From Raillietiella orientalis (Eukaryota): 64,000 nt of DNA. The position numbers and the translations under genes are program-made. The notes beneath the pieces are model-generated. The model was given only the letters and a program-made list of their open reading frames with translations. It was not told the origin of the DNA and ran no database searches. Where the stretch lies: positions 1 through 64,000 of the forward strand of contig JAYWIR010000019.1 in assembly GCA_036172245.1 (NCBI GenBank). The letters are read 5' to 3'. Below, piece after piece: positions 35,119-64,000 of this stretch (position 1 is the first letter of the stretch; each line of letters opens with the position of its first letter).

Positions 35119-35443
35119 AGCCCTCTCCTACTAAGCTTTCTTTAACAATGCAACCTTTTTTAAACCCTTTAAACTTCCCCACTCCAGACTGTGCGAGAAA
35201 CTGATGTATCATCCTAATCCTAATATCCTTTCTCACTTTTATTCGCTCAAGACCAAATTTGACACTTAAACAACTTGACTGATAAAAGAACCCTTGCTTC
35301 GCACTTTCACAAGCACACGCGAATGCACTCCTACATTATCAGAATTCGTCAAGTATGAATGCCAAGGTCAAGGACCATCTGGGTAATTATTAACCGGACT
35401 TCCCCTCTCCTTGACTACATAAAATCCAGCACTCTGCTACACA

Positions 35444-35452
35444 CAGTATTAC
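35444..35452 (+). promoter_or_regulatory. CRESS origin nonanucleotide CAGTATTAC
   Basis: Matches NAGTATTAC, lies between the cap and rep 5' ends; flanking stem not clearly preserved. Confidence 0.55.
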
Positions 35453-35494
35453 CAACTTAACGCCGTAATTTGCAAGAAGTTCAAGTCCCTCATC

Positions 35495-37094: not shown

Positions 37095-37335
37095 CAAACC
37101 TAGACATACTACCTTTCCGGCCATTTTTTATCATTAAAGACCTAACAAGCCTTCTACCACTTATTACACTCCTCCTATTTACATCCACCTTCTTCCCTTA
37201 TATATTTATATCCGAAGAAAATTTCATAATCTCTAACCCTCTAATAACCCCTTCACACATTCAACCTGAATGATACTTCCTATTCGCTTATACTATCCTA
37301 CGATCAATCCCCAACAAATTAGGAGTAATTGCAAC
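37095..37335 (+). pseudogene. CYTB: NUMT: mitochondrial cytochrome b fragment
   Basis: PFRPFFIIKDL...ENF..SNPL.TPSHIQPE(TGA=W)YFLFAYTILRSIPNKLG-VIA: PEWY motif read in mitochondrial code. Confidence 0.95.
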
Positions 37336-41814: not shown

Positions 41815-42448
41815 TTCATGAACCGAAGGCTGCACACTTCCTCCGAAGTCGCAGGACGCAGCAACGCATCCGCTGCCCGCGTCGAATGGCGCTGGTTGGC
41901 CTAATCATTCGGGCATGGCACCGGCGGTGGATTAAGCCGGAGGGCCCCGATGAAGGCCGGAACAATGGGAAATTGACCTTCGGGTCTTCCCAGGAATAAA
42001 GGAGTGGGGAGTTCCCCCTTCGGTTGTACAAGGGAGAGCGGACCCCCTCACTGGGGGACCCCTCCGGTTTCAAGATGGAGCAGGAGCCCTCACGGGCACC
42101 TTTCCAGTTGTTCAAAGGAGCGGACCCCCTTGTTGCGGTGGTCCCTTCGAGTCGTCGACTCTTCACAGAGTGCACAAGGAAGCAAGCGATAGCGATTCCC
42201 TGCGGGAAGCTGCAGCGCCCCTTCTGAGTTTCGGAAGCGTTCCTTCGGGGTTCTCTTCAGAGGAGTGAACAGGAGCGGTTCCCTTGCGGGTTCCCTCCGG
42301 AGAAGAAATTTCTACAAGCGGATCCTTTCCGGGTTCCCTTCGGAGAAGATGAAATGGAGAGGACCAACCCCCATTACGGGGGTGTCCCTCCGGAGAGAAT
42401 GAGGAAGGAGATTCCCTTCGGGGTTCCCCTTCGGAGACAACCAGGGTA
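41815..42448 (+). repeat. Structured UUCG-hairpin-rich interspersed element, copy a (probable 3' end of a third non-LTR family)
   Basis: Homologous to 44870-45660(-) and 62045-62466(+). Preceded by an ORF tail ...IRAWHRRW, followed by an A-run. Confidence 0.8.
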
Positions 42449-44869: not shown

Positions 44870-45660
44870 TAAGTACCTCAGAGCCGGTCGCGTGCCACGC
44901 GGCGCACGTGGCTCTTTTTTGAACATTGAACACACTATTTTGTTTCTACGCCCCTCCGCCCGCGGCAGCCCGCAGGGGTGTGTGTAATTCTTCAGGATAG
45001 GGGGCACCCCGGGATGGAAGTTCGCCCTATGAATCCAGGAAGGGCTCGGAGTCCGTTCCTCTCACGCTTGGGGAGGGATCCCCCGGACGGGGGGGATCGC
45101 ACCTCCCACCCTGGTTGTCTCCGAAGGGGAACCCCGAAGGGAATCTCCTTCCTCATTCTCTTCGGAGGGACACCCCCCATGGGGAGGGGCTATCCTCTCC
45201 ATTTCAACTTCATTTCAACTTCTCCGAAGGGAACCCGGAAAGGATCCGCTTGTAGGAATTTCTTCTCCGGAGGGAACCCGCAAGGGAACCGCTCCTGTTC
45301 ACTCCTCTGAAGAGAACCCCGAAGGGACGCTTCCGAAACTCAGAAGGGGCTCTGCAGCTTCCCGCAGGGAATCGCTATCGCTTGCTTCCTTGTGCACTCT
45401 GTGAAGAGGCAACGACTCGGAGGGTCCCCCGGTGGGGGGGTCCCCTCTCCGTTGCACGACAGGAGGGAGAACTCCCCATTCCTTGATTCCTGGGAGGACC
45501 CGAAGGTCGACTCCCATTGTTCCGGCCTTCATCGGGGGCCTCCGGATCAAACCACCGCCGGTGCCACGCCCGAATGTCTCGGCCCACCAGCGCCATTGCA
45601 GGAGAAACTCGGAACTCGACGACGCAGTGGCGTCAGAGTTTCTGCCGAAGTATTCGAACC
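44870..45660 (-). repeat. Structured UUCG-hairpin-rich element, copy b (longest, ends in A-rich tail)
   Basis: Reverse complement matches 41890-42448 and 62045-62466. Confidence 0.8.
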
Positions 45661-46246
45661 CGCGACGCATGGTGCCACACGCGGAAGCCTTAACCACAAG
45701 GCCTCCGACGCGGACAGCATTTTCAACGGTTTTAGTACCCGTGATTGACATTTGAAATGCACGGAAAGCACACAGAAAATAGAACGATTCGGGAGTCACT
45801 CTATGAAAGTGTTTGGCACTGTTCGCGAGTCAGTACGAGAGGAAAGCGTTCATTCGTTTCATGAGTGGAATGTCGAGTTACGAGCATGCACCGAGTGGCG
45901 AGACGTCTCTTTTCTCGTCAGAATGAGCACCGAGCACCGAGTCTGATGAGTTCCGACACCGTCGCGTACCGAGGTACTACCACTGCACTGAAAACGGGCA
46001 AGGGCTTGCGAAAGAAAAAAGCAATGCACTCAACGTCCCCACCTGACCGCCGTGTCGTGAGGCGGTTCTTCCTTCACTCACCAGCGGGATCAAGGTGTCC
46101 TGCCGCCTGTGCGAGAAGGTTCCTCCGCGGGCCCTCCAGCTCCCAGTGAGCAGCCACAGAGACGTTGCAAGGCGGCACCTTGCCGTCCTCTCTCCGCGTC
46201 GTTCCTACAGATGAAGGCCCCCTGCGTATCCAGCACAGCGCTGCAG

Positions 46247-47187
46247 TTTTCCCCAATCCCACAAGGAGTGGGGTAAATTTGTTTTCTTTAACATTCGCAC
46301 TACATTTTCACTCACTCTATTCAATTATTTGTACCACAAATGTCAGTGTGAAGGCAGCTTCTTGGGGTTTCACCGAGGTACTGCACTTAAGGGGAACTGG
46401 GCTTGCTTTGTGCATGGGCGTTGACCTCAGCCCTCCGTAGATGTATCGGCAAGTCCAGGCCGGCACTCTTCTTCAATCTCTTATGCAGATCTCCTTCCGG
46501 ATAAACCCTTTCAGGATTTCCATCGGAGATACGGCTGTCCTGGTGGTCTTCATCTTCCATCACTGCACAAGTATGGCGGTGATGAAGAGGGCGATGGTCA
46601 TCCTCACCATGGGATTATAGCCGCGAACGTTTCCATTACCTTGGAGCATCGCCGCTAAGATTTCCATAGTTGACGTGGTGGGCAGCTCTATAACCCTTTT
46701 CAGGGCCTGCCAGTCGTGATGCAATGTGGGGCATGTCAAGACGTAAAGTCTCGTATCGATGTCCCCACATGCCTTGCAGTTCTCGCCTTCTCTTCTTCCC
46801 GTGAATTGCTTCATCCTAGACCCGCTCAGGATTCCTCCGTGATGAATCAAGAGGTCATCCTGGGAGTCTGGCGGTAGATCACTCCTCCAGAGCGTTGTTC
46901 CGATCGCCAACGGGTTGATCCTGTCGCTCCCGTAGCGATCGACGGCTTCTTGAAGGGCACTAGTATCCTTGTCTTCTTCTCTTATTATTTTTCTGAAGTT
47001 CTGCTTGTTTACCCTGGATCACGCAAAGTTATGGTGAAGTCCAAAGGACACTTTGCGTGTCCTTTGAGTGAATTTTTCTGTAATCATCTCGGTGTACTGG
47101 AGCATTCGGGAGTGGTGAAGATAGCCTCCTCGCCTTCATTCTTGAATTCTTTGCAAGGCGACTCTGGGCTGCTGGTATATGCCAACT
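46247..47187 (-). mobile_element. Family B 5'-truncated copy (ORF2 C-terminus + 3' hairpin), not flanked by U1
   Basis: AIGTTLWRSDLPPD...CKACGDIDTRLYVLTC...YNPMVRMTIALF; end TTTACCCCACTCCTTGTGGGATTGGGGAAAA. Confidence 0.88.
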
Positions 47188-47810
47188 TTAGCACAGCGCT
47201 GCGACAGCGGCAGCTTCTTCACGTAAGTTCTTGGGCTGTCCGCTGGGAAAGTGGCGCAAAGAAATGTTGCCCACAGTATCCACAGGTCGACTCGCGTCAC
47301 GAGCAATTAGGTGAAAGTCTCCCCCGGAACCTGGCTCTAGTTGGCACTGCACGCTCCCCCTCGTCCAGTGATGGTGGCGCGTGTTGCACGGGGGTGCCCA
47401 GTGCAACGTCAGCAGCGCCTACTGTTGCTACCTGAGTGGAGGACACGATTTGTCCCCTATCAACGGAGGTATCTCCAGCTCTTCCGGAGGAATTTCAAAG
47501 AGTCCTCCCCAGAGAACAAGCCCTCCGGGAGAGCTCAATTTTTTGCTGCAAGGTGCATAAGCGTTGGCTGAGACAATCGACCTGCAAGCCTGTCCACCCG
47601 GCTGCTCTCGCCTAGGTCTCATGAGCGACTTGAGGACAAGTGTGCCCGTGTGCAAGTGTGCACATTTCACCCCATGGGTGCTCCTCCTGAGCACGGGAGC
47701 TCCGTCGCGGAGGAATCTTAGACCTCGCATGTCATCCGAACGTGAAGGCTCTGGACACCTTCTGCTGAAAAGCACGAGATAGAAACCGAGGTGGCTCGCC
47801 TGGATCACGT
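47188..47810 (-). mobile_element. Decayed family A-like ORF2 C-terminal fragment
   Basis: GLVLWGGLFEIPPEELEIPP...LHWAPPCNTRHHHWTRG. Confidence 0.65.
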
Positions 47811-48237
47811 CCTTTTATTTTCCCGGAAAAGCTGCTCTGAGAAACTGAGATTTCTGGAATAGGAAAACAAAACAAAACAAAACATGTTGCCATTTTGTAT
47901 GGGATAAACGGGAAAGGCGCTGAAGTAGTCGGGGCGAGAGAGTTTCGCGCGACTCGCCAAGATAGTGTAGTTCAGAGAACAAATCCTAGAGGGAGGTAAA
48001 GAAGAAATAAGGAAATCTCACGAAATTAATGCGTGCACATTACGAAAAAAAGCAAAAAGCGACATGAGCCTTAAGGCAGTAAAGTGACAAAGAACAGAAG
48101 GAGTGGGTAATACGGTTTCACAGGCTCCTTGGTTTCAAGATAATTGGAATATTGAAACAGCGATTTTCTCATTCAGCACGCGTTGGGGGCAAAGTCGACA
48201 GGGATATGAAGGGCCGACCAGGAGTAAACATTCATTC

Positions 48238-48260
48238 ATACTTACCTGGCTTCGAGGTTA
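48238..48260 (+). ncRNA. RNU1: U1 snRNA gene, nt 1-23 (5' part, interrupted)
   Basis: ATACTTACCTGGCTTCGAGGTTA: canonical U1 5' end. GCTTCGAG pairs with CTCGGAAGC in the 3' part. Confidence 0.92.
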
Positions 48261-48331
48261 AGGTCGCGCCCGAGGCGGTGTCCCAGGCGGGACCCGCGGG
48301 CGTCCACGCGGCGAAGGGAGCGCAAGATGCG

Positions 48332-49762
48332 ACGCCATCTTGCTCGGCTGCTCAGCCGTTTTCATACGCGTCGGTGGCGGCGGGGCAGGTCAGTGTCCAC
48401 CCGCCGAGAAAATTCGGAAAGCCCCTAAGGGGAAAAGTAGAAAGGGTGGACCGTCCGGTTGTCCAGTTAGGCCCGGAGGTGAAACCCATCATGTTTCGCA
48501 CAGGGCTGATAAAGTTCAGCAACATTAGGGAAGTATATCTGTCCCTAGATAAAACAGACTTGGACTTCGACCGCATTCAGGCGATCATTCCAAATCATTC
48601 AGGGTTCACAGTCTTCACAGACTGTGAAAACATCAGGGAGAGGTTGATCCAGAAAGGGATCAACATCCAAGGCAGGATGATCTGTGGTGTCGGCGAGATG
48701 CCGTACACCACGGTGTACATGAGTGGTATTTCGATTTACACACCACAACTAACGGTGTGGGAATACCTGGAACAGTTTGGAGAAGTTCTCGACCTCGAGT
48801 TCGAGAACTTCTCTGGAAAAATCTTTTCCGGCGACATGATCGCCAAGATAAAGCTAAAGGAAGGAGCGCAGATTCCCGGGATAGCCGTCATTGACGAACC
48901 ATCCCACTGCGTAAATGTACGCTACCGGCAGCAACCGGTATTTTGCACCGGGTGCAAGCAGTTCGGCCATAGGGCTGGCGCTTGCCCGACATCGCGATGT
49001 TACCGCTGTGGCAAGATTGGGCATCAAGTCCGAAACTGCCCACAGCCGGAGGTTTGTTCCTTCTGCAAGAAGCACGGACACGCTAAATGGAGCTGTCCGG
49101 AATTCGCTAATTGCAGAAGGATTCGTGGACTCTCTCCTGTGAGAGAGAGGAGTGTGAGGGAGGCGGAACAGCCTCAGAAGATGGCAGGAAGGCCGAAGAA
49201 GACGAGGGAAGTCGCCCCGGCATCGGCGGACGGCTTCATAGAAGTCGGAAAGAAGGGGAAGAGGAGGATGCTCGTCAAGGAGCAGGAAGCCTCTCTTACC
49301 CCAGAAGTAGCGGAAGAAGGCGAAAAAATGGAGACAGTACAGGAGGAAGAGAAAGCAGTGGAAGAAGTCACTCCGGTGTCGCAGGAGGCCCTGCAGTCCA
49401 CCGAGGAGTTGACGAAGCTTTCCGAAGAAGTGATGGAGGTGCAAAGCGGGCCCCAGCAGGTGCAAATCCTGCAGAAGATCTGCGATGCACAGGAAACTGT
49501 GAACCAGGTGGTGGAGGTAGCTGAACGAAAGAAGCTGGAGGAACAGCTTCTTGAAGTGAAGGCCAACTTCTGCGCCAAGGTCGAGATAGAGGCTCTATCT
49601 CGGAAATTAATAGCGCGAGCCGAACACTCTACAGAAGAGGCGGAAATAACCGACCTCACTGGGGCGGAGAGTGACGCGGCAAGCGATAAACCCGCTCCTT
49701 CTTCAACGTCTGGGAGATCACGCTCTCCCAGACAGAAGAAGCTCAGGAAGGCCAAAAAGTAG
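48332..49762 (+). CDS. Family B ORF1 (three CCHC zinc knuckles); start uncertain
   Basis: CTGCKQFGHRAGAC, CYRCGKIGHQVRNC, CSFCKKHGHAKWSC. ACG at 48332 aligns with the ATG of copy 2 (53495); the first in-frame ATG inside the element is 48491. Confidence 0.85.
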   Translation, partial: TPSCSAAQPFSYASVAAGQVSVHPPRKFGKPLRGKVERVDRPVVQLGPEVKPIMFRTGLIKFSNIREVYLSLDKTDLDFDRIQAIIPNHSGFTVFTDCENIRERLIQKGINIQGRMICGVGEMPYTTVYMSGISIYTPQLTVWEYLEQFGEVLDLEFENFSGKIFSGDMIAKIKLKEGAQIPGIAVIDEPSHCVNVRYRQQPVFCTGCKQFGHRAGACPTSRCYRCGKIGHQVRNCPQPEVCSFCKKHGHAKWSCPEFANCRRIRGLSPVRERSVREAEQPQKMAGRPKKTREVAPASADGFIEVGKKGKRRMLVKEQEASLTPEVAEEGEKMETVQEEEKAVEEVTPVSQEALQSTEELTKLSEEVMEVQSGPQQVQILQKICDAQETVNQVVEVAERKKLEEQLLEVKANFCAKVEIEALSRKLIARAEHSTEEAEITDLTGAESDAASDKPAPSSTSGRSRSPRQKKLRKAKK

Positions 49763-49774
49763 GTCTTCCCCTTT

Positions 49775-52700
49775 ATGGCCTCATACCTATCGACCGCCAG
49801 GAGGCTGAACATCGCCTCCTGGAACGTAAACGGTTTGATCGACCAGACCAAGAGGAAAAGAATCGTGCGGACCATCGCACGACAAGATATCGTCTGCCTG
49901 CAGGAGACCCACAAGATGGGTCTCGAGGTTAGTCAGCGGATGGAACGGCGTTTCAATGGGCAGATTTTCGTCAGCGAGGGAGAACGGAACACGCAGGGTG
50001 TGGCGGTCTTAATCAAGAACCATTTGGCCCCCACTATCCTAGAAGTGTTCTGTCCCTTAGCTGGACGCATCATCGGAGTGCGACTGGCCTGGTCCGCTAC
50101 TGTTCACCTTATTTTGGTGAGCGTGTACGGACCGCACAGACTAAAACATCGTTGCGCGGAGTCGCTGCATGCAGCACTTCGGGAAAAGGTCGCGCCCAAG
50201 GACGTCGTGATCGTCGCTGGCGATCTGAACATCCTGGACGAAATCACACATTCCCAGGACGCCAGAGGAAGGTCGGCGTATCGGCGGCTATCCGACGAGT
50301 TCGGATTGTTGTGGCGAACAGCAAGCCACAAGCCGATCGATCACGTCCTCCATAGCACGGAATTAGGGAATCGTATTCTGGGTTTTCGCGACATACCCAT
50401 CACCCTGTCCGATCACCCGCTAGTGCGTTTTTCCCTAAGGACGGAGAATCCTCGGCGAAAGCAAGGCACCAGGGCAGCGCTCATCAGCATGCCCGTCTGG
50501 TTCGAAACACATCCTGGACATCAGGAGGTCCTAGAGGCGATTCTCAAAGCGACTACAATTCGAAGAGTCGCCGACTGGGACAGCCTGAAACACAGGATAC
50601 ACCTGTTTGCGAATATGCAGTTTGGCGATAGACGATTGAGGCAGGAAGCATACCGGGAGTTAAACATCAAAGATCGCTCACTCTCCAAGTACTTCGAGGA
50701 ATACGAGAGTCGGTATGTCTTCCATAATGTAAAAGGGGAAGTCGGCGTGCTGGAGAAGAGGAATCTGGCAACAGATATCTTCTGCATCCAGTACGCCGAT
50801 CAAAGTCGGCACACGTCTGAAGATATCGTAGATGCCTTCGAAAGGCACTATACGGAACATTTTCGATGCGAACACCTGTGTTCGACTGCACAAAACACCT
50901 TCCTGGGCTATTTGGAAAAGAAGCTTGACGACCTCCAGCGGAAGAGACTGGAGGAGGATATTACTGAAGAAGAGGTGAAGACTGCGTTCGGTCAATTACG
51001 CAAGGATGTGGCAGCAGGCCCTGATGATGTTCCCATCTCTCATTATCAGAGGTATCTGCATGCCTACCTGCGTTTATTCCACCAGTTGACCCTCTGCATC
51101 CGACAAGAAGGACGACTGCCGGAGTCCTTCTACGAGAGCAGGACGAGATTATTGCCGAAAGGGGGCGATCTGTCTAGGATAGCACAATGGAGGCCAATCT
51201 CGATCCTTAACTCGGATGCCAAGTGGTTGGCAAAGATCTGGGCCAACCGCTTAGGCAAAGTAATGTCGAGGCTAATATCTCCTGTCCAGACGTGTGCGGT
51301 ACCCGGACGTCACATGCTGGACAATGTCAAGTGCGCGCAGGCTATCGTGGGACTCAGCCGATACGTCGGAGAGAACCTGGTGCTTGCGTTCACTGACATG
51401 GAGAAAGCCTTCGACACCGTCGATCACGGGATGCTGCTGAAGATTCTGGAAAAGCTGGGACTCCCAGAATACTTCAGCATCTTCGTGCGAATGATCCTCC
51501 GGAATCAACGCTTCCGGATAAAGATCAACGGAGTGGAAACGGCAGTCATTCGGATGGAGCGAGGAGTTCGGCAGGGCGACTCGCTAAGTCCGATGCTGTT
51601 CGTTATCTACATGGAGGCGCTCTCTTTTTTCGTCGAGAAGAACGGACGGATGAAAGGAGTAGAGGTAGACAACCAGAAGCTCACCCATCTAGCATACGCG
51701 GACGATCTCCTCTTCTTCATAAGAGGAAAGAGGGATCAAGAAACGTTCCTGGACGTGGTGGGCCTTATGAAAGATGGATTGGGCTTAAAAATCAACGCCC
51801 AGAAAAGCCAGCTTTTGCCCGTCGGAATACTGGATCTCTCCACACTCATGGGGAGTGGTTTCCGTACGGTAGATACGGCCAAGTACCTGGGAATCCACAT
51901 AGGCGACGACTCCGCGTCGAAGCTGCTGTGGACCGAAATCCTGGGGAAAACGGCCAACGAAGCAGCAAAATACACTCGAGTGGACTTTGGGGTGAAGCAA
52001 AGGGCCAACCTCTGGAACGGAGTACTCCTTCCAAAGGTACTCTTTGGAGCGGCTTTCGCTAGAATGGACAAAGAAACCTCGAGAGAAGTAGAGAAGCTGC
52101 AACGAAAAACACTGTGGGGCCACTATCGCCCAAGAGTCCGTTTAAAACCCCTGTGTCGTCCCAGGGAAGAAGGCGGTTCCGGGATGAAGTCGCCTGCACA
52201 CTCCATGGAAATCATGGATACGCGACACATACTGGACATAGCCACCCGCTGGGATGACTGGCCGTATGCAGCACACAGGGCCTACGCGTTGTTGTTAAAC
52301 AACTCGAAAGGCCTTATGACTGCGCTGCTAGGCCGAGCAGGAGAGTGGATGTCCATCGACCCAACCTGGAGGAGGAAGCAACGGCTGGTGCGCAAGCACA
52401 AAATCAAGATCGTGCCGCGAAGCAGGGAACTCTGGCAGGAGGAATCCATCCTGGTGATCCCCTGGATGCTTCCGGTCCCTTCGGACACGAGAAGCTGGAT
52501 CTACCGGCGGCCCGGAGTTACCCTGCAACGAATCCAGGAATGGAGAAGAGGAGGTTACCTACGTCATACTCGTATACTTCGGTATATAGAGATGATGTTA
52601 GGAAGGTACACCCATATGACCCGTGAGGTGTGGATCAACCACAACGATCTCGCGTGGTCTAGGGTAACCAAAATTAACCTCAGAAGACTTATTCGAGAAG

Positions 52701-53293
52701 ATGACCAAGACATCAGTGCCCTCCAAGAAGCAGCCGAACGCTACGGGAGCGATCGCATCAACCTGCTAGCGATTGGCACCACGCTCTGGAGGAGTGACCT
52801 TCCGCCGAAGACCCAGGACGACCTCCTGATGTTTTACCATGGAGGAATCCAAAGTGGGTCTAGACTCCAGTATTTTACCGGAAGACGGGAAGATCAAGAC
52901 TGCGTAGCATGTGGAGACACCGACACCAGACTTCATGTCTTGACGTGTCCCACATTGCTACACGACTGGCTGACCCTGAAAAGGATCATAGGACTTACCA
53001 ACAAGTCCGTTATGGAAATCCTCGCCGGGATGTTTCAGGGGGATGGTAATGTTCCCTGTTACAATCCCATGGTGAGGACGACCATAGCTCTCTTCATCAC
53101 CGCCATACTCGTGCGGTGGTGGAAGATGAGGAAAGCCAGAAGAGCCGCACCTCCGATGGAGATCCTTCAAGGACTCATCAAGAAGGAGATAGGCATCAGG
53201 AACTGTGGACGAATCCATGCCTGGACGTACCGGTTCATCCTGAAGATGATTGAAGACGACGCCCGGGACCAAGCATCCGGAAACTCACCCTGA
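49775..53293 (+). CDS. Family B ORF2: APE endonuclease + RT + C-terminal zinc finger, uninterrupted
   Basis: SWNVNG, LQETH, VYGP, GDLN, IDH, SDH; WRPIS, DMEKAFD, GVRQGDSLSP, AYADD, KYLG; CVACGDTDTRLHVLTC. Confidence 0.95.
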   Translation: MASYLSTARRLNIASWNVNGLIDQTKRKRIVRTIARQDIVCLQETHKMGLEVSQRMERRFNGQIFVSEGERNTQGVAVLIKNHLAPTILEVFCPLAGRIIGVRLAWSATVHLILVSVYGPHRLKHRCAESLHAALREKVAPKDVVIVAGDLNILDEITHSQDARGRSAYRRLSDEFGLLWRTASHKPIDHVLHSTELGNRILGFRDIPITLSDHPLVRFSLRTENPRRKQGTRAALISMPVWFETHPGHQEVLEAILKATTIRRVADWDSLKHRIHLFANMQFGDRRLRQEAYRELNIKDRSLSKYFEEYESRYVFHNVKGEVGVLEKRNLATDIFCIQYADQSRHTSEDIVDAFERHYTEHFRCEHLCSTAQNTFLGYLEKKLDDLQRKRLEEDITEEEVKTAFGQLRKDVAAGPDDVPISHYQRYLHAYLRLFHQLTLCIRQEGRLPESFYESRTRLLPKGGDLSRIAQWRPISILNSDAKWLAKIWANRLGKVMSRLISPVQTCAVPGRHMLDNVKCAQAIVGLSRYVGENLVLAFTDMEKAFDTVDHGMLLKILEKLGLPEYFSIFVRMILRNQRFRIKINGVETAVIRMERGVRQGDSLSPMLFVIYMEALSFFVEKNGRMKGVEVDNQKLTHLAYADDLLFFIRGKRDQETFLDVVGLMKDGLGLKINAQKSQLLPVGILDLSTLMGSGFRTVDTAKYLGIHIGDDSASKLLWTEILGKTANEAAKYTRVDFGVKQRANLWNGVLLPKVLFGAAFARMDKETSREVEKLQRKTLWGHYRPRVRLKPLCRPREEGGSGMKSPAHSMEIMDTRHILDIATRWDDWPYAAHRAYALLLNNSKGLMTALLGRAGEWMSIDPTWRRKQRLVRKHKIKIVPRSRELWQEESILVIPWMLPVPSDTRSWIYRRPGVTLQRIQEWRRGGYLRHTRILRYIEMMLGRYTHMTREVWINHNDLAWSRVTKINLRRLIREDDQDISALQEAAERYGSDRINLLAIGTTLWRSDLPPKTQDDLLMFYHGGIQSGSRLQYFTGRREDQDCVACGDTDTRLHVLTCPTLLHDWLTLKRIIGLTNKSVMEILAGMFQGDGNVPCYNPMVRTTIALFITAILVRWWKMRKARRAAPPMEILQGLIKKEIGIRNCGRIHAWTYRFILKMIEDDARDQASGNSP

Positions 53294-53432
53294 TAGCAGA
53301 ACTTGAGAAACCCCAGAGACTTCAAAGCGGTAATACAGTGCCAGTGGTATGAATGAGATTGTAGTATGAATGTTATAAAATGAAAAATAAATTTACCCCA
53401 CCCCTTGTGGGACTTGGGGAAAATCGAGGTTA

Positions 53433-56400
53433 AGGTCGCGCCCGAGGCGGTGTCCCAGGCGGGACCCGCGCGCGTCTACGTGGCGAACTTCGCGATGTCA
53501 TCTTCCTCGGCTGCGGCGGTGCAGCCTTTTTTATATGCGGCGGTGTCGGCGGGCCAGGCAAGTGCTCAGCCTCTGATAAAATTTGACAGACTCGAGAGGG
53601 GAAAGATCACCCGGGTCAAGGAGCCGATTGTGCGGCTCAGTCCGGCATCGAAACCAATAATGTTTAAGACCGGACTGATCCGCTTCAATAACGTGAAAGA
53701 AGTCTATCTAGCACTATATAAGACCTATGTGGATTTTGATTGCCTGCAGGCGATCATTACGAGTACGACGGAGTTTACTATCTACACAGATAGTGAACCA
53801 CTGAGGGAGGCCCTGATCGAGAAGGGCATAAACATCCAGGGGCGGATGGTTTGTGGGATCGGTGAAATGCCGTACACGACCGTCTTCATAAAAGGCCTAA
53901 ATCATAATACTGAGCAGGACGCTGTTTGGGACTTCTTGTCCAAGTATGGGGAGTTCTGGATGTAGAGTTCCAGAACATCTCTGGAAAAATCTTCTCTGGC
54001 GAGGTGATCGCCAAGGTGAAGTTGCAGGAGGAAGCACAGATCCCTGGGATGGTGCGTATCGATGGAGACTCCCAGGAGGTCTCTATCTCTTATAGGCAGC
54101 AACCTGTGTTCTGCACAGGTTGCAAACTCTTTGGCCATCGTCGGGGTGCCTGCCCCAGGGCTCGCTGCTTCCGTTGTGGGAAGCAGGGACACCTGGTACG
54201 CAATTGCGACATGCCCGAGGTCTGCTCGTTTGGCAAGCAGCCAGGGCATGCGAAGTGGTGCTGTCCGGAGTTTGCCAACTATCGGACTATGCGTGGCCAG
54301 TCCCCCGTGCGGGAAAAGGCGTTGACCGAGGTCGTGAAACCTCAGAAGGTAATAAAGCAGAGGAAGGCGAAGGAGGCCGCTCCGGTTTCGGCGGACGGCT
54401 TTGTGGAGGTTGGTAAGAAGGGGAAGAGGAAGATGCTCATCAAGGAGCAGGAAGCTCCTCTAACCAAGAAGTATTAGCAGTGGAAGGCGAAAATATGGAA
54501 GTAGCGGAAGAAAGCGAGAAGGCGGAAAAGGTGGAATCCATTCCGGTGTCGCAGGAGGCCCTGCAGATACCGAAGAGGTCGAAAAATTGGCGGAGGAGGT
54601 TATGGAAGTGCAGACCGAACCTCAGCAGGAGCAACTCCTGCAGAAGATCTGCAATGCGCAACAAACAGTCAACCAGGTGGTGGAGGTTGCCGAGCGCGAG
54701 TAACTGGAAGACAAACTTCTCGACGTAAAGGCAAACTTCTGCGCCAAGGTGGCGTTGGAAGCCCTCCCACGCAAGATGGTCGCACGAGCCGAGCACTCCA
54801 CCGAAGAGACCGACATCACCGATCTCACCGGGACGGAGAGCGACGCTGGCAGCGAGAGACCCGCTCCTGCTTCTTCGTCTGGAAGAGCACCACGCTCTCC
54901 CAGACAGAAGAAACTCAGGAAGGCCAAGAAGTAGGCCTTCCCCTTTTATGACCTCAACCCTATCGACCGCCAGGAGGATTAACATCGCCTCCTGGAATGT
55001 AAACGGTCTGATCAACCAGGTTAAAACAAGAAGAATTGTGCGGATCATCGCACAACAAGACATCGTGTGCCTGCAGGAGACCCACACGTTGGGTCTCCAG
55101 ATCATCCAGCAAATGGAACGACGTTTCGATGGGCAGATGTTCGTCAGCGAAGGACAGTGGAACACGGAAGGTGTGGTGGTCTTGGTCACGAACCAACTAG
55201 CCCCTACCATTCTGGAAGTCTTCTGTCCCTTGCCGGGACGTATCATCGGCGTGCGACTGGCCTGGTCCGCTAACGTTCACCTTTTCTTGGTAAACGTGTA
55301 CGGGTCACACAGTTACAAACATCGATGTGCGGAGGCGCTGCATGCGGCACTCCGAAAAAAAGTCGCGCCCAAGGACGTCGTGATCGTTGCTGGCGATCTC
55401 AATATCCTGGACGAACCCACAAGATCCCAGGACGCCGGAGGAAGAAAGGCGTATAGGCGGCTTTCCGACGAGTTCGGATTGCTGTGGCGAACGGCAAGCC
55501 ACAGGCCAATAGACCACGTCCTTCACAGTACTGAATTAGGGAAGCGCATTCACGGTTTTCGTGACATCCCCAATGCGCTGTCCGATCACCCGTTGGTGCT
55601 ATTTTCCCTAAGGACGGAAAATCCTCGCCGAAGGCAAGGCACCAGGGCGGCGCTCATCAGCATGCCCGCCTGGTTCGAGAACCATCCCTGTCATCAGGAA
55701 GTTCTGGAGACGATTCTGAAGACCACCACGATCCGAAGAGTCGCCGACTGGGACAGCCTGAAGCACAGAATCCATCTCTTTGCAAATATGTAATTCGGAG
55801 ATAGGAGATTGAGGCAGGAGGCGTACCGGGAGCTGAACATCCAAGATCGCTCCCTCTCAAAGTACTTTGAGAGGTAGGAGAGTCGGTACGTCTTCCATAG
55901 CACAAAAGGGGAAGTCGGCGTACTGGAGAAGAAGAATCTGGCCACAGATATCTTTCGGATTCAGTACGGCAACCATAGCCGACACACGTCGGAGGACATA
56001 GTGGATGCCTTCGAAAGGCATTACACGAAACACTTTCGGCGCGATCATCTGTGTCAGGCGATACAGAATACCTTCTTGAGTCATCTGAAAAAAAAGATTG
56101 GCAAGCTCCAGCGTAAGAGTCTGGAGGAGGATTTTTCCGAGGAAGAGGTGAAGACTGCGTTCAAGGAATTACGCAAGGATGTAGCGGCAGGACCTGACAG
56201 TGTCTTATCAGTCACAATCAACGGTACCTGCACGCCTACTTGCGGTTATTCCACCAGTTAACCCTCTGCATCCGCCAAGAAGGACGATTGCAGGAGACCT
56301 TCTACGAAAGTAGGACGAGATTGTTGCCGAAAGGAGGTGATCTAACGCAGGTCACCCAATGGAGGCCAATCTCAGTGCTCAACTCGGATGCCAAGTGGTT

Positions 56401-58600
56401 GGCAAAGATCTGGGCCAACCGCTTAGGCAAGGTTATGTCGAGGCTGATTTCTCCCGTCCAGACATGTGCGGTACCCGGACGCCACATGTCGGACAATGTT
56501 AAGTGCGCGCAGGCCACCGTGGGACTTAGCCGATACGTCGGCGAGAACCTGGTGCTGGCGTTCACCGACATGGAGAAAGCCTTCGACACCATCGACCACG
56601 GGATGCTGCTGAAGATTCTGGAAAAACTGGGACTTCCCGAATACTTTAGCACCTTTGTGGAAATGATCCTCAGGAATCAACGTTTCCGGATAAAGATCAA
56701 CGGTTTAGAAACAGCAGCTATTCGGATGAGCGAGGAGTCCGGCAAGGCGACTCGTTAAGTCCGATGCTGTTTGTTATCTATATGGAGGCGCTCTCTTCAT
56801 TCATTGAAAACAGTGGGAGATTACAAGGAATAAAAATTGACAACCAGAAGCTCACCCATCTCGCCTACGCGGATGATCTTCTCTTCTTCATCAGGGGAAA
56901 GAGGGATCAGCAAGCGTTTTTGGATGTGGTGATGCTCATGAAACAGGGACTGGGTCTGAAGATCAACGCCCAGATGAGCCAGCTTTTGCCCATCGGAATC
57001 CTGGATCTCTCCGCTCTCACGGGGAGAGAATTCCTGAAGGTGGACATGGCCAAGTCTCTGGGAGTCTACATTGGCGACGACTCTGCGTCGAAGCTACTGT
57101 GGAAGGAAATCCTGGGGAAAACGGCAGAAGAAGCAGCGAAATACACCCAACTGGGTTTTGACATGAAGCGAAGGGCCAACCTATGGAATGGAGTCCTCCT
57201 TCCAAAGGTACTCTTCGGAACGGCCTTCGACAAGTTGAACAAAGAAAACACCAGAGAAGTGGAAAAGCTGCAGAGAAAGACATTGTGGGGACACTATCGC
57301 CCAAGAGTCCGGCTGAAACAACTGTGTCGTCACAGGGAAGAAGGTGGCTCAGGGATGAAGTCGCTTGCACATTCCATGGAAATCATGGATACGCGACATA
57401 TCCTGGATATCGCTACTCACTGGGATGACTGGCCGTATGCGGCGCATAGGGCCTACGCGTTGTTGTTGAACAACTCGAAAGGCCTGATGACTGCGCTGCT
57501 AGGCCGAACAGGGGAATGGTGAACCATCGACCCCACCTGGACAAGAAAGCAAAGGCTAGTGCGAAAGCACAAGATAAAAATCGTGCCTAAAAGTAGGGAA
57601 CTCTGGCAGGAGGAGTCCATCCTGGTGATCCCATGGATGCTTCCGGTCTCCCAAGACACGAGAAGCTGGATCTACCAGCGGTCCAGAGTTACCCTACAAC
57701 GCATCCGGGAGTTCAGAAGAGGAGGATACCCACATTACACTCGTATACTTCGGTATATAGAGATGATGGTGGGTAGGTTCACCCATATGACCCGCGAAGT
57801 GTGGATCAACCACGATGACCTCGCGTGGTCCAGGGTAACCAAGGTGAACCTCCGAAGAATGATTAAGGATGAGGACCAAGACACCAGTGCCCTCCAAGAA
57901 GCCGCCGATCGCTGCGGGAGTAACTGTTTTAACCTGTTGGCGATTGGCACGACACTCTGGAGGAGTGACCTTCCGCCGGACTCTCTGGACGACCTCCTGA
58001 TGTTCTATCATGGAGGAATCCAGACCGGGTCCAGGCTCAAGCACTTCACAGGAAGACGGGAAGATGAAGACTGCACGGCATGTGGAGACATCGATACGAG
58101 ACTACACATCTTGACGTGTCCCACTTTGCTACGCGACTGGCTGATCCTGAAAAGGATGATAGGACAAAACAACAAGTCCGTGATGGAAATCCTCGCCGGG
58201 ATGTTTCAGGGAGATGGTAATGTTCCCTGTTACAATCCCATGGTGAGGATGACCATTGCCCTCTTCATCACCGCCATACTTGTGCGATGGTGGAAGATGA
58301 GGAAAGCCAGGAGAACCAGAACCCCCATGGAGATCCTACAAGGACTCATCCGCAGGGAGATTGGTATCAGGAACTGTGGACGACTCCAAGCCTGGACGTA
58401 CCGATTCATCCTGAAGAGGATTGAGGACGACGCCCGGGACCAAACATCTGGAAACCCACCCTGAATGCAGAACTTTGAGTATCCCAACGGACCTTCAAGG
58501 GAAGTGAAAGTAATAATATATTGTGTGAATGAAATTGTAGTATGGATGTTTAAAAAATTGAAAATAAATTCACCTCATCCCTTGTGGGACCTGGGGAAAA
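53433..58600 (+). mobile_element. Family B copy 2, full length, ORFs broken by stops and frameshifts
   Basis: Colinear with copy 1 (ORF pieces 53405..58464); same 5' 38 nt and 3' hairpin. Confidence 0.93.
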
Positions 58601-58740
58601 TTGCGCTCACGAATGCAATTCCTCCAGAGTGAGGCCTGGCCATTGCACTAAGGCAGGGCTGACCTTTGCGATAACCCCTAAAGCGGGTTACTCGGAAGCA
58701 TAATTTTTAGGTTGGGAGACTGCGTCCGCGCAGACTCCTA
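58601..58740 (+). ncRNA. RNU1: U1 snRNA gene, nt 24 to ~163 (3' part)
   Basis: SL1 loop TCACGAA, SL2 loop ATTGCAC (U1A site), SL3 ATAACCC..GGGTTAC, Sm-site-like AATTTTTAG, SL4 GGAG.CTGCG-TCCG-CGCAG.CTCC. Confidence 0.95.
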
Positions 58741-58819
58741 CTGAACAATACCAAAGAAAGCTTATGGCAAGCAGTGTGCTTTCCCCCTCACACACCGCTC
58801 GTCTTCAGCATAACCCCGG

Positions 58820-61800
58820 GCAGTGCCCGGTGTGCAGGACTTGAGGGAGTGGCCAGCCTTTTCCCCTGTTTCCATGGCGCCTTCTTCGCCGACGGAGGTG
58901 AGCCTGCCTGGCGCCTCCGGGGATGTAACCGCTCCAGCGTTGGCAACGACCCCGCAGAAGCCGCCGACTGGCGCGACCGCGAGCCGAGCACGGCGAAAAT
59001 CCGCCATTTTCGAAATACAACGTGTAGGGGAACGCGTTTGGGAAATCGCTGACGACGTCAAGGCGATAACGTTTTAAAACAGAGATGATGAGAATTGCGA
59101 ACGTGAAAGACATCCACGTGGCGTTCCACAAGGAAAACGCGGACTTTAATCCCATCAAGGCCATCGTCTCGTCTGCGATAGGCTTCACTACTCCGCAGAC
59201 GAGGAACTGCAGGAGGCCCTCATGGAAAAGGGCAGCGTCATCGACGGCTACGTGGATTGGAGGAGTTAGTTGTCCTTTGCCTCCGTCTACCTGCACGGTG
59301 TGCACTGCAACATCACGCTTGAAGATGTGGGAGCACTTCTCCCAGTACGGAGAAGGTGTCCTTCCGCAACCATGTGGAGCAAGTTTTTCACCGGAGAGGT
59401 CATGGTGCGGACCAAGCTCTTCGCGGATGCGCAGATCCCAGGCATCGTCGGTTATTCCCAGGACGTACAGGCGCGCTACCGCCTACAACCCATCTTCTGC
59501 GCGGTCCGTAAGGAGTATGGCCACCACGTAGCCGCTTACAATATGGATACACCCGAAATACAACGGAAGATATCGTGGGTACCTTTCAGAAGCATTACAC
59601 GGAACACTTTCGACGACAACACATAAGTGAAGCAAACAAAAGTATGTTCCTAAAATACATTGGAAAAAAGACGAACGAAACCCACTGGAAGAGGCTGGAG
59701 GAGAACTTTACAGAACAAGAAGTGAAAATTGCGTTCCAAGAACTACGCAAGCATGTGGCAGCAGGCCCTAATAGTGTTCCCATCACGCACTACCAGCGGT
59801 ACCTGCACGCCTCCTAGCGCCTATTTTACCAACTGACAGTACGCATTCGAGAGGAAGGACAATTACCTGAATCCTTCTATGAGAGTCGAATAGATTACTG
59901 CCAAAAGGAGGCTACTAACGCAGGTCGCTCAATGGAGGCCAATCTCAATCCTAAACTCTGATGCCAAACGGTTGGCAAAAATGTGGGCCAACCGTTTAGG
60001 CAAAGTTATGCCAAATCTCATTTCCTCGGTCCAGACATGTGCAGTCCCCGGACGCCACATGTCGGACAATGTTAAGTTTGCCCAAGCCATCGTGGGATTA
60101 AGTCGACATATCGGCGAGAACCTGTTGCTAGTGTTCACCGATATGGAGAAGGCCTTTGATACTATTTACCATGAGATGCTGCTTCAAAATTCTGGAAAAA
60201 CTGGGTCTTCCGGAATACTTCGGCAACTTCGTGAAGATGCTACTTCAGAAGCAATTTTTCCGAATCAAAATTAATGGAGGAAAAACGGCAGCCATACAGA
60301 TGGAACGGGGAGTCCGCCAGGGCGACTCGCTAAGTCCAATGCTGTTCGTAATTTATATGGAGGCGCTATCGTCCTTCATCGAAAAAAGTGGATATGTCCG
60401 AGGAATCACCATCGATGACCAGAAGCTTACCCATCTGGCATACGCGGACGATCTCCTTTTCCTCATCAGGGAAGAACGAGACCAATATGCGTTCCTGCAT
60501 GTGGTGGAGATGTTGGAAAAGGGGTTGAGCTTGAAGATCAACGCCCAGAAAAGCCAACTTTTGCAGATAGGAATCCTGGATCTATCCATTCTCACCGGAA
60601 GAGGATTCCGAATAGTCGATAATGCCAAATATTTAGGAGTCCACATCGGCGACGAGTCGGCGTCGAAACTACTGTGGACACAAATTCTAGGAAAAACAGC
60701 AAATGAAGCAGTAAAATATAGCAGAGTGGACTTTAGCATGAAGAGGGCAAATCTTTGGAACGGAGGAGTACTCCTTCCCAAGATGCTCCTTGGAGCCGCC
60801 TTTGCCAGAACAAACCAAGATACCATAAAGGAAGTTGAAAAACTGCAACGCAAGACACTATGGAGAATATATCGCCCAAGGGTGAGATTAAAACCCTTGT
60901 GTCGCCCTAAAGAGGAGGGCGGTTCCGGGATGAAGTTGCTGGCACATTCCATAGAAATTATGGATACGCGACACATCCTGGACATCGCAGCCCACTGGGA
61001 TGACTGACCCTATGCAGCTCATAGGGCCTACTCGATGTTACTAAATGACTCGAAAGGCCTGATGACTGCACTGTTAGGCCGAGTAGGAGAATGGGTCAGC
61101 ATAGATCCCACTTGAAAATTGGTGCAAAAGCACCAACTGAAGACTGTTCCTAGAAGCAAGGAACTCTGACAAGTAGAATCCATCTTGGTAATTCCCTGGA
61201 TGCTTCAGGTGCCCTCGGACACCAGAAGCTGGATATACCAGAGGCCCAGAGTCACCATACAGCAAATTCAAGAATGGAGAAAAGGAGGAGACCTACATCA
61301 CACTCGTATACTTCGGTATATAGAGATGATGTTGGGAAGATTCACTCATAGGACACGTGAAGTATGGAAAAACTACAGGGATTTGGCCTGGTCCAGGGTG
61401 AACAAGCAGAACCTCCGAAAAATGATTAAAGAAGATCAGGATACCAGTCCCCTCCAAGAAGCGGCCCATCGCTACGGGAGCGACAGGATCAACCCGTTAG
61501 CAATCGGCACGACTCTTTGGAGAAGTGACCTACTGCCGGACACCCAGGACAATCTCCTGATGTTCTGTCACGGAGGAATCCTGAGCGGGTCCAGAGTAAA
61601 GTACTATACGGGAAGACGCGAAGACGAAGATTGTATGGCATGTGGAGACTTTGATACGAGACTACATGTCTTAACCTGTCCCACATTAATTCGTGATTGG
61701 CTGATCCTAAAACGGATCATAGGAAGTACAACTAGTACAATAATGGAAATACTTGCAAAGATGTTTCAGGAAGACGGAAATGTCCCCAACTACAACCCTA

Positions 61801-62540
61801 TGGTAAGGACGACCATTGCTCTTTTCATCACCGCCATACTGGTGCGGTGGTGGAAAATGAAAAACGCTGGAATAGCCCCTTCTCGAATGGTAATCCTGAA
61901 AGGGCTAATATCAAATGAAATTGGAATCAGGAATTGTGGAAGAGTGCCGGCCTGGACGCACCGCCATGTTCTCAAAAGGATTAAAGACAACGCCCAGGCA
62001 ACGAACTCAACTAATGTTCCCTAAAAGAAAAAAAAAGGGGCGATCTTCCAAAGGAGCGAACACTCCCTGTTGGGGGTCCCTCCGAGTCGTCGCCTCTTTG
62101 CAGAGTGTGCACACAAGGAAGCAAGCAAAAAGCGATTCCCTGCGGGAAGCTGCAGAACCCCTTTTGAGTTTCGGAAGCGTCCCTTCGGGGTTCTCTTCAG
62201 AGGAGTGAACAGGGGTGGTTCCCTTGCGGGTTCCCTCCGGAGAAGAAATTCTTACAAGTGGATCCTTTCCGGGATCCCTTCGGAGAAGTTGAAATGGAGA
62301 TGACCACCCCCCGTAAGGGGGATGTCCCTCCTGAGAGAATGAGGGAGGAGATTCCCTTCGAGGTTCTCCTTCGGAGACAACTAGGGTGGAGGCGCGGTCT
62401 CCCCGTCCGAGGAGGGATCCCTCCCCCAAGCGTGAAAGGAACGGACTCTGAGCCCTTCCTGGATTCTTTGTAATTGAATGAGCCATTGTAGCAAAAAGAA
62501 TAAATAAACTCACCCCACCCCTTGTGGGACTAGGGGAAAC
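58820..62540 (+). mobile_element. Family B copy 3, diverged and internally deleted (ORF1 N-half fused at ~59540 to mid-ORF2)
   Basis: ORF1 homology (AITFKT..RIANVKDI); RT pieces 59575-61007; C-terminus 61185..62024; 3' hairpin 62499-62540. Confidence 0.88.
62045..62466 (+). repeat. Structured UUCG-hairpin-rich element, copy c, inside the family B copy 3 3' UTR
   Basis: Matches 42111-42448 and 45030-45440(-); absent from the 3' UTRs of copies 1 and 2. Confidence 0.82.
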
Positions 62541-62546
62541 CCTTAT

Positions 62547-62639
62547 ATTGCGCTCACGAATACAACTCCTCCAGAGTGAGGCCTGGCCATTGCACTAAGG
62601 CAGGGTTGACCTTTGCGATAACCCCTAAAGCGGGTTACT
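62547..62639 (+). ncRNA. RNU1: Second U1 snRNA gene fragment, nt 23-115
   Basis: Near-identical to 58600-58692 (three substitutions). Confidence 0.92.
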
Positions 62640-64000
62640 GCAGTGTGAAGAGGGGGACGAAGGACTTCCTGAGGATCGCCCTTTGGGTCAGAGGGAGGTC
62701 CCGAGTCCGCCTGAAGGACCTGTGTGCTCCGCGTCGTGATGGAGGCCACGGCCTCCTGACGCTGGAGCGGCTGGAACTGCAGCTGTAGTTCAGGACGCTA
62801 GCCCTAGTGGCGCAGTTGTGGAGAACCAGCTGGTGCGAGCCTGCACGACACCTGGTTCAGCGAGCCAGCGGCTGCGCGGGACTGTCTACCTTCCTAGCGC
62901 GCCGCAAACACCGGTACCTCTTCCACGGCAGACTGGCACTTCGGCGAATGGTCAAGCTGACCAGGATGAACACCTGGATCTCATGCCGGCCCGCGAACGG
63001 CACTTCCTGGTTGCAGGAAAGCCTTCGCACGTGGTCCCAGATTGCCGAAGCGAGCCCGGAGTTGCGGCAGCGACTGCTGCACTCCTTTTACAAGAGCCGC
63101 TCGCTGCAGGACATCATTATGCAGCCCACCTTGAGCGCATGGGCTGAGAGGACCTCCCTTGCCCTTTTTCGTGCAGCCCGCCTTGAGTGAGTGGGCTGAG
63201 AAGACTTCCCTTGCCGCGGCTCTGTCCTACCTCAGGGAACACCTGGGCAGTAGCCAGTCGGCCAAGTGGGAGGTCCGATGCAGAATCTTGTCAAGAGAGA
63301 GAGAACAAGGCGGTTGGACCACGGGCCAGCTGACTGACGCTGCGACCCAAAGTCCCCCACCGAAGGACTGTTGCGCTGGGGCGAGCTGCTGAGCATCCCC
63401 ATGGATGTACTCGAGTAGCCCCGGTGCTGAAGACTACCCGGGCCTTCCCCCTGAAGTGGCAGGAGTCGGCGTTCCTGGTGTTGCACTGGGGACTCCCCAG
63501 CAACGCCCGCCGTTCGCACTGGACGAGGGGGGCTGTGGACCCAAATTGTGTCAGGTTTGGGGAACGGGAATCCCTCCCGCACCTGCTTCTTGACTGTGTT
63601 GCCCTCCGGCACCTGTGGTTGCGTTTCGCAAAGGCCCTTGGTGCAACCATGAACTGCCCTAGAGACGTATTGAAGCGCCTCTTTGTGCACGACGCCCATT
63701 CGCCTGCTGCAGCCCTTGCAGCCCTCTGCTGCCTACGAGGGATTGTGGCGGTCTGGAGCACGCCACTGGTGGACCGAACGATAGGGACATCATCTGCTCC
63801 GCCCTGCGCTTCCTGAGGACAGCAGTTGGATGGTCCCACCTGGGACGTATGCGGACTAAACTTGCCGACATCCTGGTAAGGATGTAGAGGACGACCTCAG
63901 CGGAACGTGATCCCTTCCCCGACCTCTCCCTGCTTTTATAAATAGTGTTCTTTTTTTTTTTTGTTTTTATTTGTCCCTTCCCCCTCCGCTGCCGAGTCGA
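62640..64000 (+). mobile_element. 5'-truncated family A ORF2 C-terminus and 3' UTR (runs out of window)
   Basis: RVRLKDLCAPRRDGG, PLKWQESAFLVLHWGL, LPHLLLDC; TGATCCCTTCC + T-tract + CCGCTGCCGAG. Confidence 0.88.

Follow-up and report, generated by a model that had tools for sequence, protein, structure and literature searches.

Family B, a family of retrotransposons that lack long terminal repeats (non-LTR elements), found in a 64,000-nucleotide (nt) stretch of Raillietiella orientalis DNA (GenBank assembly GCA_036172245.1, contig JAYWIR010000019.1, positions 1 to 64,000 of the forward strand; the whole stretch is referred to here as the window), probably integrates preferentially, and perhaps specifically, into genes for U1 small nuclear RNA (snRNA), in the sense orientation and in the 5' strand of stem-loop I (at about nt 20-24). 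Within the 16-kb locus that holds its copies, targeting of U1 is well supported. Element ends adjoin U1 stem-loop I in the sense orientation at three of the four 3' ends (that of copy 3 by way of a 7-nt filler) and at both recognisable 5' ends, each of which follows ...TCGAGGTTA. A U1-specific family had been proposed in an earlier note made from the sequence of this DNA; the junctions agree with that proposal at these five ends and depart from it at the fourth 3' end, that of copy 4, where the flank is not U1.

The split U1 gene and the junctions of family B

The U1 gene lies in two parts, one on either side of two full-length family B elements (Table 1). The 13-mer of the U1 5' end, ATACTTACCTGGC, occurs once in the window, at 48238, with 0 mismatches, and U1 runs on from it to nt 23 at 48260. 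Its nt 15-23 (48252-48260, TCGAGGTTA) may just as well belong to the element unit, as the 9 nt with which that begins. On the other side, positions 58578-58740 score 96.5 bits in a cmscan against the Rfam U1 model RF00003 (gathering score 69.5). This is the sole Rfam match over threshold in the window, and the Rfam scan found no U2 match anywhere in it. About 22 initial model positions (1-22) of the RF00003 alignment are taken up by the element tail, true U1 starting at 58600 (ATTGCG...); stems II, III and IV and the Sm-site region all fall within this 3' part. The halves (48238-48260 and 58600 or 58601-58740) were joined by their coordinates in a script and then folded, the Infernal score being that of the unjoined 58578-58740. 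The joined RNA of 163/164 nt takes up the four-way junction fold of U1, in which both helix H (GCUU with AAGC, 4/4 pairs) and the outer part of stem I (GAGG with CCUC) span the break. The rebuilding of a single U1 gene from these pieces and the pairing of helix H and stem I across the break, both put forward earlier, are thus upheld by score, exact 5' end and fold, with the 3' part starting at 58600 and not 58601; the position of the junction between U1 and copy 2 is ambiguous by one or two A's. The insertion point corresponds to lower-case (weakly conserved) consensus positions of stem I in the RF00003 alignment.

Copies of family B were located by blastn of copy 1 against the window. The two sense-strand elements that the earlier note had seen between the U1 halves are present as copies 1 and 2, although a 9-nt piece of U1 sits between them; this 9-mer, the 7-nt filler beyond copy 3 and copy 4 itself are features of the locus that the note did not contain. 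Copy 2 is full length and dead, with 2 frameshifts and 3 in-frame stops in open reading frame (ORF) 2 and a frameshifted ORF1. Copy 3 represents an internal deletion or truncation, and its 5' boundary is ill-defined: its ORF2, which carries 2 frameshifts and 4 stops, begins at about amino acid (aa) 342 (59536-62021), directly after a highly diverged ORF1-like piece that matches none of the other families of the window. A repeat of about 400 bp, SINE-like (resembling a short interspersed nuclear element) or other, is nested in the 3' untranslated region (UTR) of copy 3 (62072-62466) and recurs at 45031-45430 (-) and 42136-42447 (-), with 86-91% identity between its copies and internal sub-repeats. 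Copy 4 is a 5'-truncated 3' part whose protein has 62.8% aa identity over ORF2 aa 913-1172. Truncation at the 5' end, an AATAAA signal, a short A tail and the absence of LTRs are together what is found in long interspersed nuclear elements (LINEs).

Each of the four copies closes with the motif CCTTGTGGGA..GGGGAAA(A). This was found 4 times in the window against 0.02 expected by chance, and its GGGGAAA(A) end lies about 30 nt (32 nt) past AATAAA. What follows this end is U1 nt 24 directly in copy 2, 7 nt and then U1 nt 24 in copy 3, and TCGAGGTTA (= U1 nt 15-23) and then the 5' end of copy 2 in copy 1. On the upstream side, copy 1 is preceded by U1 nt 1-23 and copy 2 by the 9-nt copy of U1 nt 15-23. 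The units are equally readable as exact head-to-tail repeats starting at 48252 and 53424 and set between U1 nt 14 and nt 24 (repeat family D16: 48252-48315 versus 53424-53487, 95% over the first 64 nt; the units are about 80% identical overall). Copy 3 had been described earlier as ending at the same position of a second U1 gene. This needs to be corrected, in that CCCTTAT intervenes and the U1 in question is merely a fragment (nt 24-116), 90/93 identical (97%) to 58600-58692. The fragment ends at 62639/62640, where it is interrupted by the 3' part of another L1-like family, and the DNA from 62655 on matches other elements of the window. This 3' part (62640-64000) is 68-75% identical to 2784-3536, 9007-8312 and 16462-16838, so U1 DNA has here also been struck by a different family at a different position (nt 116).

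A small hairpin is predicted in 4/4 tails (53396-53419, 58573-58596, 62513-62536 and, on the minus strand, 46251-46273), with an outer CCCC/GGGG and an inner CCC/GGG pairing in which C-to-U changes preserve G-U pairs; its z-scores are weak (-0.35 to -2.0), and it could serve as a recognition element for the reverse transcriptase (RT). At the element 5' end no ribozyme or other Rfam family was matched at E<=1, and the fold of the 5' UTR is not significant (z-score -1.49).

Table 1. Positions in the window of the U1 gene parts, the family B copies and the sequences between them
Feature	Position	Strand	Remarks
Family B copy 4, 5'-truncated 3' part, 942 bp	46247..47188	-	71.2% nt identity to copy 1 over 959 columns
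U1 snRNA gene, 5' part (nt 1-23)	48238..48260	+	canonical 5' end of U1, without mismatch
Family B copy 1, full length, 5163 bp, intact	48261..53423	+	reference copy
Copy 1, 5' UTR	48261-48490	+	
Copy 1, ORF1, 423 aa	48491..49762	+	Met 48491, TAG 49760-49762; zf-CCHC
Copy 1, ORF2, 1172 aa from ATG	49775..53293	+	APE endonuclease, RT with YADD motif, C-terminal Cys/His motif
Copy 1, 3' UTR: AATAAA	53386-53391	+	
Copy 1, 3' UTR: end GGGGAAAA	53416-53423	+	
9-nt copy of U1 nt 15-23, TCGAGGTTA	53424..53432	+	between copies 1 and 2
Family B copy 2, full length, dead	53433..58599 (blastn to 58600)	+	79.75% identity to copy 1, 5200 columns
U1 snRNA gene, 3' part (nt 24-163)	58600..58740	+	RF00003; inner stem I, stems II-IV, Sm site
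Family B copy 3, dead	59070..62539	+	75.6% identity to copy 1 over 2458 columns (59566-61998), plus tail 62493-62539
Copy 3, ORF1-like N-terminal piece, highly diverged	59070-59531	+	26.5% identical to family B ORF1
7-nt filler CCCTTAT	62540..62546	+	separates U1 from copy 3
Second U1 fragment (nt 24-116)	62547..62639	+	RF00003 30.1 bits, E 0.00028, under gathering score

By the method of Nei and Gojobori, applied to tblastn-anchored codons, the ratio of non-synonymous to synonymous substitution rates (dN/dS) in ORF2 is 0.154 between copies 1 and 2 (1173 codons; dS 0.61), 0.117 between copies 1 and 3 (814 codons; dS 1.31), 0.183 between copies 1 and 4 (259 codons; dS 1.23) and 0.128 between copies 2 and 3 (808 codons; dS 1.31), while ORF1 of copies 1 and 2 gives 0.10 over 411 codons (dS 2.10). 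On these values most of the divergence between copies arose under purifying selection, in lineages that still functioned, and not once an insert already dead had been duplicated locally. The tails and 3' UTRs of the copies differ and their U1 flanks are 97% identical, with 3/93 differences between those of copies 2 and 3. Low ORF2 ratios (0.12-0.18) at a dS of 0.6-1.3, set beside flanks that have changed so little, therefore argue that the insertions were independent. Derivation of the U1 junctions from one insertion by segmental duplication, which the earlier note had named as fatal to its proposal, is accordingly excluded for the copies of the window. Three separately evolved, selected lineages end at U1 nt 24, within 7 nt of nt 24, or at the copy of U1 nt 15-23.

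Further information on the locus comes from a public sequencing run, X1, which contains 60% of the sampled words of copy 1. Contigs of X1 were aligned to 46000-64000 at >=85% likeness with all repeats and other families included; the 274 contigs comprise 22 at >=99%, 39 at 95-99%, 78 at 90-95% and 135 at <90% likeness, a spread that suggests many variant repeat copies in the sample. None of the X1 pieces listed spans an element/U1 junction. One contig bridges 48258 to 58599 with CTT between, and so presents an uninterrupted U1 of the form GGT-CTT-AATTGCG (GGTCTTAATTGCG); it has a depth of 3 and a shorter side of 24 nt (the caution line being 30), and its U1 variant exceeds the rebuilt U1 by 2 nt. 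An intact U1 of this type probably exists, and in view of this weakly supported contig the insertion may have been free of loss, as the earlier note had it, or may have removed 2 nt. The CTTA of the copy 3 filler may likewise derive from a U1 variant with GGTCTTAATTGCG, in which case copy 3 would have inserted 4-5 nt further upstream.

Two other runs with the organism label of X1 (X2, from the sample of X1, and X3) contain two 35-nt matches each, in AT-rich contigs; this near-absence of the stretch could reflect the library type, or a stretch that comes from something not in those libraries. No RNA run was listed as containing copy 1. A scan of metagenomes with the tail motif returned at least 118 loci, all of them chance matches (0/118 similar beyond the 20-22 nt motif). 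ORF2 gave 26 pattern matches in prokaryote genome contigs, none of which tblastn confirmed, and none in viral contigs, and the U1 stem-I pattern had 0 matches in prokaryote genome contigs.

Coding capacity and lineage

Judged from its predicted proteins, family B is an autonomous LINE of the L1 superclade, with two ORFs and an endonuclease of the apurinic/apyrimidinic endonuclease (APE) type. The open ORF1 and ORF2 frames that the earlier note had reported in copy 1 are both confirmed and both contain Pfam domains. In ORF2, Exo_endo_phos is matched at 1.7e-19 over residues 18-218 (profile positions 1-225 of 225) and RVT_1 at 8.6e-33 over residues 466-713; the closest solved structure is human LINE-1 ORF2p (6.6e-54), R2 proteins being found at about 1e-22. 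ORF1 matches zf-CCHC (1.3e-05) and has three CCHC knuckles followed by a long C-terminal helix. These knuckles, and the YADD and Cys/His motifs of ORF2, were read by eye from the translations. A search of the PDB with ORF1 gave matches to CCHC proteins only, beyond weak ones at E 0.18-0.4, and a single-sequence AlphaFold2 model has a mean predicted local distance difference test score (pLDDT) of 42.5, with values of <50 for residues 1-172 and confidence just for the helices at 296-389. An ORF1 protein of type I, in which an RNA recognition motif (RRM) is combined with a CCHC knuckle, has been described as consistent with Tx1 (PMC5203782). The three predicted knuckles of family B ORF1 fit this type; an RRM was not recognised in it, the PDB matches being weak and the N-terminal half of the model low in pLDDT.

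Both ORFs of copy 1 are in the same frame, and the TAG of ORF1 is separated from the ATG of ORF2 by 12 nt (49760-49777), so that read-through or re-initiation could yield ORF2p; copy 2 has a 1-nt insertion at the gap between the ORFs. Because copy 1 is intact, its activity is plausible.

The relatives of family B are distant. Among 1.84 billion cluster representatives the closest, from Closterium (a charophyte alga), a sea turtle and plants, are just 29-36% identical; none of the protein searches returned a relative of >36% identity, and a protein atlas gave generic RVT/Exo_endo_phos clusters without taxa and nothing else. The turtle relative led to named Tx1 references, namely Swiss-Prot YTX2_XENLA, pol-like proteins of Tetraodon and Danio, 'TX1/YTX2' proteins of Betta, Alligator and Polyodon, and two turtle proteins. 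An RT tree with 39 rows, computed by a quick search in IQ-TREE under LG+C20 (unrooted, without an outgroup or a vertebrate L1 reference, and with some long branches) unites eight named Tx1 or Tx1-like rows and one unlabelled row in a 9-row clade with 100% support in the Shimodaira-Hasegawa-like approximate likelihood ratio test (SH-aLRT). Family B is outside this clade; its partners, at 99% support, are three further elements of the window and a single metagenome protein, and an approximately unbiased (AU) test rejects its placement within the Tx1 clade (p=0.000584). The earlier note had called the family 'Tx1-like' and had suggested an RT phylogeny against Tx1 families as a check; run against the named references, that phylogeny does not put family B among Tx1, and the label is not supported. 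The data allow the designation 'L1-superclade lineage, unplaced', as the boundary between L1 and Tx1 is undefined in this tree and the wider Tx1 of Repbase is not covered by it.

The first half of the window (1-32400) is crowded with further L1-like non-LTR elements, nested in one another and lying on either strand, with matches to RVT_1, Exo_endo_phos and zf-CCHC, whose proteins are 26-31% identical to family B ORF2. The metagenome protein of the 99% clade (JGI P0136) is very near to these elements, which are flanked by no Rfam RNA gene at E<=1. The G+C content of the window is bimodal, at 52-65% in the retroelement nests and 40-43% at 34-38 kb (34000-38000), and the elements seem much GC-richer than the background DNA. 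One of the L1-like elements contains a perfect-looking palindromic hairpin (11494-11557) that scores 34.6 and 33.7 bits on the two strands against the microRNA precursor model mir-3926; with a gathering score of 82, these matches are most likely due to chance.

A possible integration route and its alternatives

The junctions suggest a route by which family B could insert. Its RNA would be polyadenylated about 30 nt past AATAAA and end in GGGG followed by A's. In the U1 gene the predicted endonuclease would nick the bottom strand, across from nt ~23/24, and the exposed primer end (the complement of AATT) could pair with the short A tail and prime reverse transcription. The 5' end of the RNA would carry TCGAGGTTA, whether as the true start of the unit or through co-transcription from the U1 promoter. 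We propose that the 5' junction is seamless because the complementary DNA (cDNA) of these 9 nt, a leader with the sequence of U1 nt 15-23, pairs with the U1 DNA on the upstream side, which would leave a junction without visible duplication and with at most a small loss. A second event at the remade 3' junction would then give the exact head-to-tail dimer; alternatively, the dimer may have formed in a single event, in which synthesis reached the 5' end of one RNA template and jumped to a second RNA at its 3' end. In its fullest form, this reading would make family B the first lineage of LINEs to be dedicated to U1, one that branched off deep within the L1 superclade and came to target snRNA genes independently of Tx1/Keno. 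Its RNA would start in the U1 leader (nt 15-23) or at the U1 promoter, its 9-nt identity to the target would seal the 5' junction, and copy 1 would be a potentially active member. We hold this fuller version only tentatively, as a possibility somewhat short of even.

Several observations weigh against a preference of family B for U1. The evidence is drawn from a single 16-kb locus, which holds one U1 gene in split form and a second U1 as a fragment. The copies do not agree in every respect: the nick position differs among them, the junction of copy 3 carries its filler and no U1 5' piece was found upstream of that copy, and the 3' flank of copy 4, one of the four 3' ends, is not U1 and has no Rfam match at E<=1. 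Sequential insertion would make the downstream copy 2 the younger of the pair, yet copy 2 is decayed. Conservation of the target was seen in no related family elsewhere, the best relatives being as distant as described above, and the specificity of the endonuclease for U1 is a prediction. Finally, X1 may be the source sample of the window itself and is therefore not independent of it.

Another account would be an ordinary L1-like family without real sequence specificity. One old insertion among arrayed U1 genes would then have been multiplied through unequal crossing-over or duplication, its element bodies being overwritten later through gene conversion by further members of the family; or the family would have just a weak regional preference, for a locus that was dense in transposable elements beforehand. 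L1-like elements are nested throughout the window, copy 4 lies outside U1, the second U1 fragment was also cut, at nt 116, by an L1-like family not known to be U1-specific, and even among Utopia elements some families are only weakly specific (PMC4640811), all of which would suit such a family. We nevertheless think it unlikely, given that the dN/dS and dS values indicate bodies that diverged while functional, that the tails and 3' UTRs differ beside U1 flanks that hardly do, and that three sense ends within ~10 nt of one site in a 163-nt gene would be very unlikely at random.

It is less probable still that the U1 pieces travel with the element, as a 5' head acquired by template switching or co-transcription, in the manner of crocodilian Tx1 families and SINEU, and a 3' piece acquired by read-through transduction, with copies landing anywhere. 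U1-derived heads are indeed borne by Tx1-2_Crp, Tx1-2B_Crp and Tx1-4_AMi (PMC4494074), copy 2 has just U1 nt 15-23 upstream in a head-like manner, and the A tail is merely 3-4 nt. Against this, the outer U1 pieces make up one gene in which helix H and stem I pair correctly, neither an A tail nor a second target junction follows U1 nt 163 (58741), copy 1 is followed by the copy of U1 nt 15-23 and not by the 3' part of U1, and a 10-kb dimer is improbable as a single transduced unit. Mis-joining of repeat copies and U1 reads during assembly is the explanation to which we give least credence, slight at best. The locus is rich in related repeats, and X1, with none of its listed pieces across an element/U1 junction, is a low-coverage run; the junctions are nonetheless base-precise and mutually consistent, with one 5' start seen twice and one tail four times, the U1 halves on the two sides complement each other, and the copies are 20-29% diverged, so that collapse or mis-joining is unlikely. 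Preferential insertion into U1 remains the reading that we favour.

Relation to known target-specific elements

Target-specific LINEs persist as selfish elements in a safe harbour, and are under development for site-directed gene insertion. R2 and R1, which are specific for 28S ribosomal DNA, find this harbour in a multicopy RNA gene. As a kind, such elements are already known, and it is family B itself that is probably new. No U1-specific non-LTR element was found in the full-text literature, a search whose scope leaves out Repbase Reports, Dfam, subscription journals and supplements. This agrees with the earlier note, to whose author no such family was known; for U1, only the Dada-U1 DNA transposons have been reported. 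Similarly, a 2015 paper gives just Keno and Utopia (U2), Dada-U1 (U1) and Dada-U6 (U6) as the elements reported from snRNA genes (PMC4640811), and no passage that links U1 and transposable elements was found in PMC8190105.

A U1-specific LINE, if true, would add a target to the snRNA genes reported for non-LTR elements, namely U2 (Keno, Utopia) and U5, the latter listed as a target in a figure legend (PMC4494074). If family B is truly outside the Tx1 clade, it would also be a case in which APE-type elements came independently to target snRNA genes. The seamless 5' junction with its 9-nt target-identical leader, together with the head-to-tail dimer, bears on the second half of LINE integration, and the intact copy 1 offers a testable pair of endonuclease and target. 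The suggestion in the earlier note of an active system usable for site-specific integration holds for the first part, in that activity of the intact copy is plausible; use of family B as an integration tool in other species is doubtful, because stem I of U1 is poorly conserved at the point of insertion. We see family B as of interest to transposon specialists and not as a new principle.

Among the elements with which family B can be compared, R2 and R1 share with it the proposal of co-transcription and homology-assisted 5' joining (cited in PMC4494074), and differ in their target and, for R2, in a different class of endonuclease and a single ORF. It is argued in the discussion of PMC4494074 that co-transcription with the target strengthens specificity. 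The Tx1-Mar families and SINEU are likewise reminiscent of family B, having U1-derived sequence at the 5' end of an L1/Tx1-type element and sharing the idea that transcription comes from the flank or the target; in these families, however, the U1 sequence forms a head, and the elements that bear it are aimed at a Mariner transposon, whereas in family B U1 lies on both sides and the gene can be reconstituted (PMC4494074).

Dada-U1A_DR and Dada-U1B_DR have U1 as their target, and also occur as tandem copies parted by short target-derived sequence, but they are DNA transposons of the DDE type, which enter U1 at a different site and duplicate 6 bp (GCGAAT/GCGAAC) there (PMC3706591; PMC8869645). 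Family B, a retrotransposon in stem-loop I with no clear duplication, is not a Dada-U1 element, a kind marked by a DDE transposase, sub-terminal inverted repeats and a duplication of 6-7 bp; that identity is ruled out by its APE endonuclease and RT and by ends that are not inverted repeats. Utopia is closer in behaviour, with an snRNA-gene target, precise 3' and variable 5' junctions, occasional tandem insertion, and several lineages in one small gene family whose strength of specificity varies; it has a restriction-like PD-(D/E)xK endonuclease, one ORF and U2 as target, in contrast to the APE endonuclease, two ORFs and U1 of family B (PMC4640811).

The targets reported for the Tx1 clade include U2 (Keno), 5S (Mutsu), the tRNA spacer (Dewa), microsatellites and transposons (PMC4494074; PMC3706591). 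Of these elements Keno, an APE-type, U2-specific member of the clade (Kojima and Fujiwara 2004, cited in PMC4494074 and PMC4640811), invites comparison. Like family B, it is a LINE with APE and RT domains that occupies, in sense orientation, a set position of a multicopy spliceosomal snRNA gene, has CCHC knuckles in ORF1 and forms tandem copies; tandem insertions and variable 5' junctions are on record for both Keno and Utopia in U2 genes (PMC4640811). The flanks of family B are U1 (RF00003) where those of Keno are U2, family B falls outside the named Tx1 clade, and, whereas Keno occupies a universally conserved stretch of its target, family B lies in a weakly conserved stem.

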